Positions 18,058 to 18,420 of a stretch of DNA of 64,000 nt are shown here, piece after piece; position 1 is the stretch's first letter, and every line of letters begins with the position of its first letter. The notes beneath the pieces were generated by a model. It was not told where the DNA came from, did no database searches, and saw only the letters and a list, made by a program, of their open reading frames with translations. The translations under genes and the position numbers were made by a program. This stretch comes from Escherichia coli (GTDB lineage: Bacteria > Pseudomonadota > Gammaproteobacteria > Enterobacterales > Enterobacteriaceae), in the NCBI RefSeq assembly GCF_051903065.1, contig NZ_CP178438.1. One strand, written 5' to 3'.

Positions 18058-18420
18058 CGGATGCGGCGTAAACGCCTTATCCGACCTACGGTTCTACCCC
18101 TGCGTAGGCCTGATAAGACGCACCAGCGTCGCATCAGGCAACGGCTGTCGGATGCGGCGTGAACGCCTTATCCGACCTACGGTTCTACCCCTGCGTAGGC
18201 CTGATAAGACGCGCCAGCGTCGCATCAGGCAACGGCTGTCGGATGCGGCGTGAATGCCTTATCCGACCTACGGTTCTACCCCTGCGTAGGCCTGATAAGA
18301 CGCACCAGCGTCGCATCAGGCAACGGCTGTCGGATGCGGCGTGAACGCCTTATCCAACCTACGGCTCTACCCCTGCGCAGGCCTGATAAGACGCGCCAGC
18401 GTCGCATCAGGCAAGACCGT
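18058..18420. repeat. tandem array of four 91-bp REP/BIME units
   Basis: Units begin at 18058, 18149, 18240 and 18331, each starting cggatgcggcgtgaacgccttatccgacctacgg..., with a few substitutions. Confidence 0.9.

Follow-up and report, generated by a model that had tools for sequence, protein, structure and literature searches.

The 64,000 nucleotides of Escherichia coli DNA analyzed in this work (contig NZ_CP178438.1; hereafter the window) comprise the genes purF, cvpA, dedD, folC and accD, all of which are encoded on the minus strand according to the ORFs and the RefSeq annotation of the identical record. The interval between cvpA and dedD amounts to 531 bp. Read along the minus strand, the dedD stop codon is followed after 9 nt by a tandem repeat array, after a further 34 nt by a hairpin with a U tract which resembles an intrinsic terminator, then by the sequence ACGCAAACGTTTTCTT, the hexamer TAGAAT and finally the ATG of cvpA. 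We take ACGCAAACGTTTTCTT to be the PurR operator of the cvpA-purF operon. The positions of the features are listed in Table 1.

Table 1. Features of the cvpA-dedD interval, given as positions in the window.
Feature	Position	Strand	Remarks
cvpA	17402-17890	-	
-10-like TAGAAT	17934-17939	-	after ACGCAAACGTTTTCTT
ACGCAAACGTTTTCTT	17947-17962	-	read from sequence; invariant in nine genera
Intrinsic-terminator-like hairpin, then TTTTTATT	17991-18020	-	12 pairs; lies beyond the array for transcription from dedD
Left flank GCATCGTGCAATGCG	18040-18054	.	resembles the z2 REP 3' end plus linker
y REP unit 1	18055-18089	-	35 nt, 5'-GTAGGTCGGATAAGGCGTTTACGCCGCATCCGACA on the minus strand; two mismatches to K-12 REP325 Y
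Tail-to-tail linker GGTTCTACCCCTGC	18090-18103; repeats 18181-18194, 18272-18285, 18363-18376		last repeat with one mismatch
z2 REP unit 1	18104-18140	+	37 nt, 5'-GTAGGCCTGATAAGACGCACCAGCGTCGCATCAGGCA; two mismatches to K-12 REP325 Z2
Head-to-head linker ACGGC	18141-18145; also 18232-18236, 18323-18327		
y REP unit 2	18146-18180	-	
z2 REP unit 2	18195-18231	+	
y REP unit 3	18237-18271	-	GAATGCC variant, common to unit 3 of O157:H7
z2 REP unit 3	18286-18322	+	
y REP unit 4	18328-18362	-	
z2 REP unit 4	18377-18413	+	GTAG changed to GCAG; hairpin foot 9 nt from the dedD stop codon
Head-to-head y-ACGGC-z2 modules matching RF02564 (naRNA4)	18107-18177, 18198-18268, 18289-18359	-	
dedD stop codon TAA	18422-18424	-	
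dedD	18422-19084/19102	-	

Structure of the repeat array

With Tandem Repeats Finder a single array was detected at positions 18055-18414, with a period of 91, 4.0 copies, 96% matches, 0% indels and a score of 671; the 64-kb window contains no second large tandem array. A repeat search returned 182-nt copies offset by 91 nt with 95% identity, in a register which begins at 18040. The four units are separated by few substitutions and unit 4 is the most divergent one. The four tandem 91-bp units which an earlier, sequence-only reading had placed between cvpA and dedD are thereby confirmed, and its coordinates (18058-18420) deviate from the computed ones by a few bases. Its location of the array at the 3' end of the accD-folC-dedD side was also correct, as the array is flanked by the dedD stop codon on one side and by the conserved terminator hairpin on the other.

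Near-identical 91-bp repeats over 364 bp exceed the length of short reads, and the array could in principle have been expanded or collapsed during assembly, which the sequence-only reading had named as the objection to its observation. However, the units carry distinguishing substitutions. Moreover, the 1,701-bp stretch with the array (17400-19100) has a 100% match in NZ_CP083585.1 (E. coli strain ECNB21-M121), and 15 further complete genomes among the matches listed align to it in full length and without gaps at 99.3%. The four-unit sequence is thus found ungapped in at least 16 independent complete genomes among the matches listed. The O157:H7 genomes in addition harbor an orthologous four-unit array with the same unit-specific variant in unit 3 (T at unit position 19, GAATGCC). 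An assembly artefact is therefore ruled out for all practical purposes.

On the plus strand, each 91-bp unit is composed of a 35-nt y REP, the 14-nt linker GGTTCTACCCCTGC, a 37-nt z2 REP and the 5-nt linker ACGGC. The y REP ends with CCTAC on this strand and has its REP orientation (5' GTAG) on the minus strand; the z2 REP starts with GTAGG. Both lengths equal those published for y (35 nt) and z2 (37 nt) REPs (PMC8266576). The REPs of the window were located by a Hamming scan. All eight REPs of the array differ from Y and Z2 of K-12 REP325 by one to four mismatches, and the eight hairpins represent REPs by their form, i.e., imperfect palindromes of 30-40 nt with a preceding GTAG and an AA/GC mismatch in the stem; GTAG is kept in seven of them, with z2 of unit 4 (GCAG) as the exception. 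The 14-nt linker has four matches in the window, exclusively within the array, at an expectation of 0.01 by chance.

Inverted REP palindromes, which had been claimed for every unit, are indeed present: within each REP, arms of 14 nt are 86% complementary. Adjacent y and z2 REPs are also mutually inverted, with 18-nt arms of 83% complementarity. At the default seed length no inverted repeats were obtained in the array, because mismatches interrupt the REP stems, and they were recovered with a seed of 6. As single-stranded DNA the REPs fold with z = -4.9 and -6.1, the latter value belonging to z2 of unit 1. As RNA, each REP forms a hairpin of -17 to -22 kcal/mol with a 2-nt internal loop at AA/GC; for unit 1, the values are -18.8 kcal/mol for the y REP, including the AA/GC internal loop, and -22.1 kcal/mol for the z2 REP. 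The complete minus-strand RNA from 17985 to 18430 folds with -225.7 kcal/mol (z = -9.3 against shuffles), and its centroid structure retains the z2 hairpins and the terminator hairpin.

Both strands of the array contain overlapping ORFs of 43-95 aa, and it could be supposed that they encode small repeated peptides. Since 91 is not a multiple of 3, however, successive units are read in different frames, and a Pfam search of these ORFs gave no match. Furthermore, the ORFs are gone in one-unit and zero-unit alleles, and the sequence in which they lie is canonical REP. A coding function has next to no probability, and the ORFs are spurious, as had been assumed. The array is non-coding and forms part of the 3' UTR of the folC-dedD transcript; gene calls within it are best suppressed in annotation.

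A role of the array itself as terminator or promoter was considered and rejected, as a site scan found no terminator-like or promoter-like sites within 18055-18414; the terminator-like hairpin at 18020-17991 is a separate element.

Further REPs were found elsewhere in the window. A hybrid REP with a y-type stem and a z2-type loop is located at 27767-27803 on the minus strand, within two small tandem repeats (27720-27789, period 25, 2.8 copies; 27794-27827, period 10, 3.5 copies). A lone y REP occupies 31232-31266 (minus), and 36635-36669 (minus) forms with 36704-36740 (plus) a single y/z2 pair, which is arranged tail to tail with a 34-nt linker. This pair (36635-36740) has no Rfam naRNA4 match.

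Assignment to the BIME-2 family

In the nomenclature of Gilson, Bachellier and Hofnung, as summarized in PMC3333891, a BIME-2 combines y with z2 REPs and is repeated several times in tandem; its linkers are short, its copies at one locus are well conserved, and their number differs from strain to strain. The linkers are named motifs, with S between REP and iREP and s, l or r at the flanks. A BIME-1 is a single copy of y and z1 REPs, and its long linker L contains an IHF site. In the array, four y REPs on the minus strand alternate with four inverted z2 REPs on the plus strand. The tandem copies are well conserved, as the 4.0 copies match at 96% and lack indels; the array has short linkers of 14 and 5 nt, lies in an intergenic region at the 3' end of a transcription unit, and varies from 0 to 7 units between strains (see below). 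No essential difference to BIME-2 was observed; the y REPs of the array carry a compensated stem variant (GTCGG...CCGAC, not GCCGG...CCGGC), and the linkers are specific for the locus. The array therefore belongs to an already known class of E. coli repeats and represents a textbook BIME-2 at a polymorphic locus. A literature search for this specific locus found no report.

The sequence-only reading had also suggested an array of IHF binding sites. BIMEs are generally associated with IHF in the literature, and both the array and the BIME-1 (RIB/RIP) elements have inverted pairs of REPs at 3' ends of transcription units. None of the features which are proper to the latter, namely z1, the single copy and the long linker with its IHF site, is present in the array, however. 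The REP paired with y is z2, the two linkers measure 14 nt and 5 nt, and a search of 17891-18421 for the IHF consensus WATCAANNNNTTR with up to one mismatch gave no hit. That the array is an IHF-binding BIME-1 is hence extremely improbable, and this suggestion could not be maintained.

The description of the array as larger than typical BIMEs is only partly valid. It is appropriate with respect to the norm, as K-12 has one unit at this locus and the other REP sites of the window consist of one or two REPs. It does not apply with respect to the known range, as K-12 REP325 contains six y/z2 units and several K-12 clusters comprise 9-11 REPs.

REP325, the source of naRNA1-6 in the yjdM-yjdN region of K-12, is among the closest counterparts of the array. 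It has been described as Y-l-Z2 repeats (Qian et al.), and the likeness consists in a tandem y/z2 array which is transcribed from the upstream gene in the same orientation. REP325 has a period of 100 bp, a head-to-head linker of 11 nt, a tail-to-tail spacer of 17 nt and six units in K-12, whereas the cvpA-dedD array has a period of 91 bp, linkers of 5 and 14 nt and four units. In both arrays the head-to-head y-linker-z2 modules exceed the gathering threshold of the Rfam family RF02564 (naRNA4). For the three modules of the array, scores of 79.5, 75.1 and 76.1 bits were obtained in the order of Table 1 against a gathering threshold of 59.5, and the plus strand remained below gathering; the K-12 REP325 control yielded six matches of 95-111 bits.

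It may be asked whether the internal modules are functional copies of naRNA4, which are produced from the dedD 3' UTR, bind HU and condense the nucleoid, with multi-unit alleles adding dosage. All three matches lie on the transcribed strand only and are oriented relative to transcription as in K-12 REP325. An allele of n units yields n-1 matches, none being obtained for the single unit of K-12 at the locus, and the effect described for naRNA4 depends on structure rather than on sequence (Qian et al.). On the other hand, an unrelated BIME-2 near phnD also matches RF02564, so that the model in effect recognizes any head-to-head y/z2 pair. The modules of the array comprise 71 nt instead of 77 nt, differ in their linker, which is shorter, and fall 30 bits short of the scores of the REP325 copies; one-unit and zero-unit alleles are common. 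A discrete RNA that binds HU and affects the nucleoid has been demonstrated for REP325 only (Qian et al.). We therefore regard functional naRNA4 copies at this locus as unlikely. The matches to RF02564 confirm the membership in the BIME-2 family, and they are better read as BIME-2 modules than as proven sRNA genes.

Unit number among strains and the mode of its change

K-12 MG1655 carries exactly one unit between identical flanks, and its cvpA-dedD interval measures 258 bp compared to 531 bp in the window, a difference of 273 bp or 3 x 91 bp. The comparison of copy number among strains, which the sequence-only reading had proposed as a check, revealed that the array is a copy-number polymorphism in steps of 91 bp. 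For this purpose, the unit number was read from the span between the flanks by using flank-only queries. Alleles with 0, 1, 2, 3, 4, 5 (plus IS1397) and 7 units were found. From the 5,425 genomes that matched, we drew two spread samples, each with 60 genomes (Table 2). About 65% of the sampled genomes have one unit, 10-15% three, 8-15% four and 2-3% none, and one genome has seven, these percentages being rough because the samples follow the similarity ranking of a biased genome collection. A further two-unit allele occurred among the listed matches of the 1,701-bp query.

Table 2. Unit number at the cvpA-dedD locus in two spread samples of genomes.
Allele	Sample 1	Sample 2
0 units	1/60	2/60
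1 unit	39/60	40/60
Degenerate fused unit	3/60	0/60
2 units, one with a partial y REP	1/60	1/60
3 units	9/60	6/60
4 units	5/60	9/60
5 units plus IS1397	1/60	1/60
7 units	1/60	1/60

With a junction query of 105 nt (E <= 1e-30, so that only contiguous inter-unit junctions pass), at least two units were detected in 1,501 of 5,426 complete E. coli genomes (27.7%), a count which is a lower bound for divergent units. Up to five junctions per genome were detected in this way, which is likewise a lower bound. O157:H7 typically has four units, as do several B2-type strains (APEC O1, ATCC 25922), and ST131 has three. The BIME-free allele is represented by the strains E1, 631 and MS14384. In the degenerate one-unit allele (2013C-4974, CUVET20-PYO4) 23 bp are lost across the tail of y, the linker and the head of z2, and the leftover left arm of y and right arm of z2 form one long hairpin. 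As a clean length polymorphism in 91-bp steps (0-7 units), the locus is a possible typing marker.

Two further differences between lineages were noticed. Some lineages, including CUVET20-PYO4, have a 12-nt in-frame deletion in the proline-rich/lysine-rich region of dedD (651 instead of 663 nt). The loop of the z2 REP reads CGCCAGCG or CGCTGGCG depending on the lineage (18104-18140 of the window and its equivalents compared to B2-type arrays). The two sequences are exact reverse complements of each other, which fits two substitutions as well as a template-switch flip of the hairpin center. In the B2-type arrays with the alternative loop, many z2 REPs have ACAG and not GTAG.

Intact alleles differ by whole in-register 91-bp units, and the first and the last unit keep their identity across lineages. 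The single unit of K-12 combines the 5' features of unit 1 with the 3' end of unit 4. In strain 317, units 4 and 5 are identical, and lineage-specific variants are common to the units of one array, with a mean of 5.7 differences within and 8.7 between arrays. In-register steps, preserved end units and duplicated, homogenized units would fit unequal exchange or slippage with some homogenization. The most likely way for the array to gain and lose units would thus be unequal homologous exchange or replication slippage involving its 91-bp direct repeats.

An amplification by the REP-associated tyrosine transposase (TnpA-REP/RAYT) via cleavage at iREP or at linker CT sites and strand transfer has also to be weighed. 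BIME fragments were recombined by TnpA-REP in vitro, and for the variation of copy number at a locus, proposed models invoke an amplification of BIMEs (PMC3333891); GTAG, moreover, is kept in all y REPs of the array. REPIN-RAYT systems likewise contain REP doublets, which are the presumed substrates of a single-copy domesticated Y1 transposase, whereas variation in the array consists of in-place, unit-wise expansion and contraction. Every change observed comprises whole in-register units, as predicted by simple unequal exchange. In addition, z2 REPs of the phylogroup-B2 type often lack GTAG (ACAG), yet such units were duplicated, and circular BIME intermediates were not found by mobilome sequencing (bioRxiv 10.1101/2024.07.17.603846). 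A transposase-driven amplification of the array is for these reasons rather doubtful, and unequal exchange or slippage is preferred; the REP-associated transposase is a possible contributor to the change of the array.

The BIME-free allele is joined at a short direct repeat, which is made up of the left flank at 18040-18054 and the z2 end of the last unit. The junction contains the 11-nt near-repeat GCATC[G/A]GGCAA, and in strain E1 the allele reads ...GCATCGGGCAA|GACCGTA. Given the outgroups (see below), the BIME-free allele is best read as a secondary deletion at this microhomology. In strain JNE25-003, whose array has five units, the insertion sequence IS1397 interrupts the third z2 REP in its loop and is flanked on both sides by a duplicated GCCA (3701-5049 of the retrieved locus). 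IS1397 is described as targeting REPs in work that is referred to in PMC3333891.

Possible function and the locus in other Enterobacteriaceae

By analogy to other members of the family, the eight hairpins in the RNA would be expected to block 3'-to-5' exonucleases and to attenuate read-through. REPs promote Rho-dependent termination and bind Pol I according to the literature. The first hairpin lies less than 16 nt from the dedD stop codon and would, if it behaves like REPs elsewhere, interfere with terminating ribosomes; REPs within this distance of a stop codon depress translation, as a citing paper reports from Liang 2015. The distance from the stop codon to the first hairpin is the same in the one-unit allele of K-12.

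At the level of DNA, the y REPs may be preferred sites of gyrase binding and cleavage. Gyrase binding is a documented property of BIME-2 (PMC3333891, PMC6379681), gyrase cleavage is enriched in BIME-2 with a preference for y REPs (PMC6379681), and BIME-2 elements have been proposed as topological barriers in the literature. Binding of gyrase by the array is therefore plausible by family resemblance, and the array may act as a buffer or insulator of supercoiling between the dedD and cvpA-purF units.

Alleles with 0 to 7 units occur next to intact dedD and cvpA genes. Because these alleles coexist, any role of the array is dispensable and perhaps independent of dose, and the extra units are probably near-neutral. 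An expansion to n units adds n-1 head-to-head y/z2 modules which are absent from the one-unit allele, and it prolongs the dedD 3' UTR by 91 nt per unit. That the unit number acts as a heritable, lineage-specific dial, be it for the dosage of a naRNA-like, HU-bound RNA, for the loading of gyrase or for read-through from dedD into cvpA-purF, is very unlikely in our view. It is highly probable that the array is a four-unit y/z2 BIME-2 in the dedD 3' UTR, which changes its size by unequal exchange or slippage and in which extra units are near-neutral.

For a comparison beyond E. coli, regions upstream of cvpA were collected from many Enterobacteriaceae by a pattern scan of species-representative genomes. 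In the alignment, nine enterobacterial genera show an almost unchanged sequence between the terminator hairpin and the ATG of cvpA. The segment on the dedD side of the terminator, up to the stop codon, is unconserved and contains different repeats in different taxa: two y/z2 units in E. albertii, a single y-like REP or a pair in Citrobacter spp., an unrelated palindrome in Enterobacter cloacae and an independent array with a 59-bp unit and 7.2 copies in Pseudocitrobacter faecalis. Trabulsiella and others have no repeats in this segment. The BIME at the dedD-cvpA locus is thus older than the split of E. coli and E. albertii. Since different repeats are found at one place across taxa, the BIME sits at a recurrent 3' UTR landing site; the stretch from the dedD stop codon to the conserved terminator repeatedly takes up species-specific palindromic repeats across the Enterobacteriaceae and is for this reason a convenient natural series for studying the effect of REP dosage on a 3' UTR. 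The array of P. faecalis (1031-1456 of the retrieved locus) is made up of a different palindromic element with 88% match.

Apart from REPs, the window contains a tRNA-Arg(CCT) gene at 54005-54079, which is followed by a decayed integrated element (54228-63501). This element includes a phage-type integrase (54228-54899 and 56020-56511) that is split by the insertion of a DDE transposase (54945-55913), an IS1 transposase (56806-57309), genes for an MFS transporter and a zinc alcohol dehydrogenase (58617-60903) and IS3-like and IS30-like transposases (61447-63501). Between them lies a fragment of a group II intron covering D1-D4 (61071-61222; Rfam RF02001, 89 bits), which is without an adjacent reverse-transcriptase ORF.
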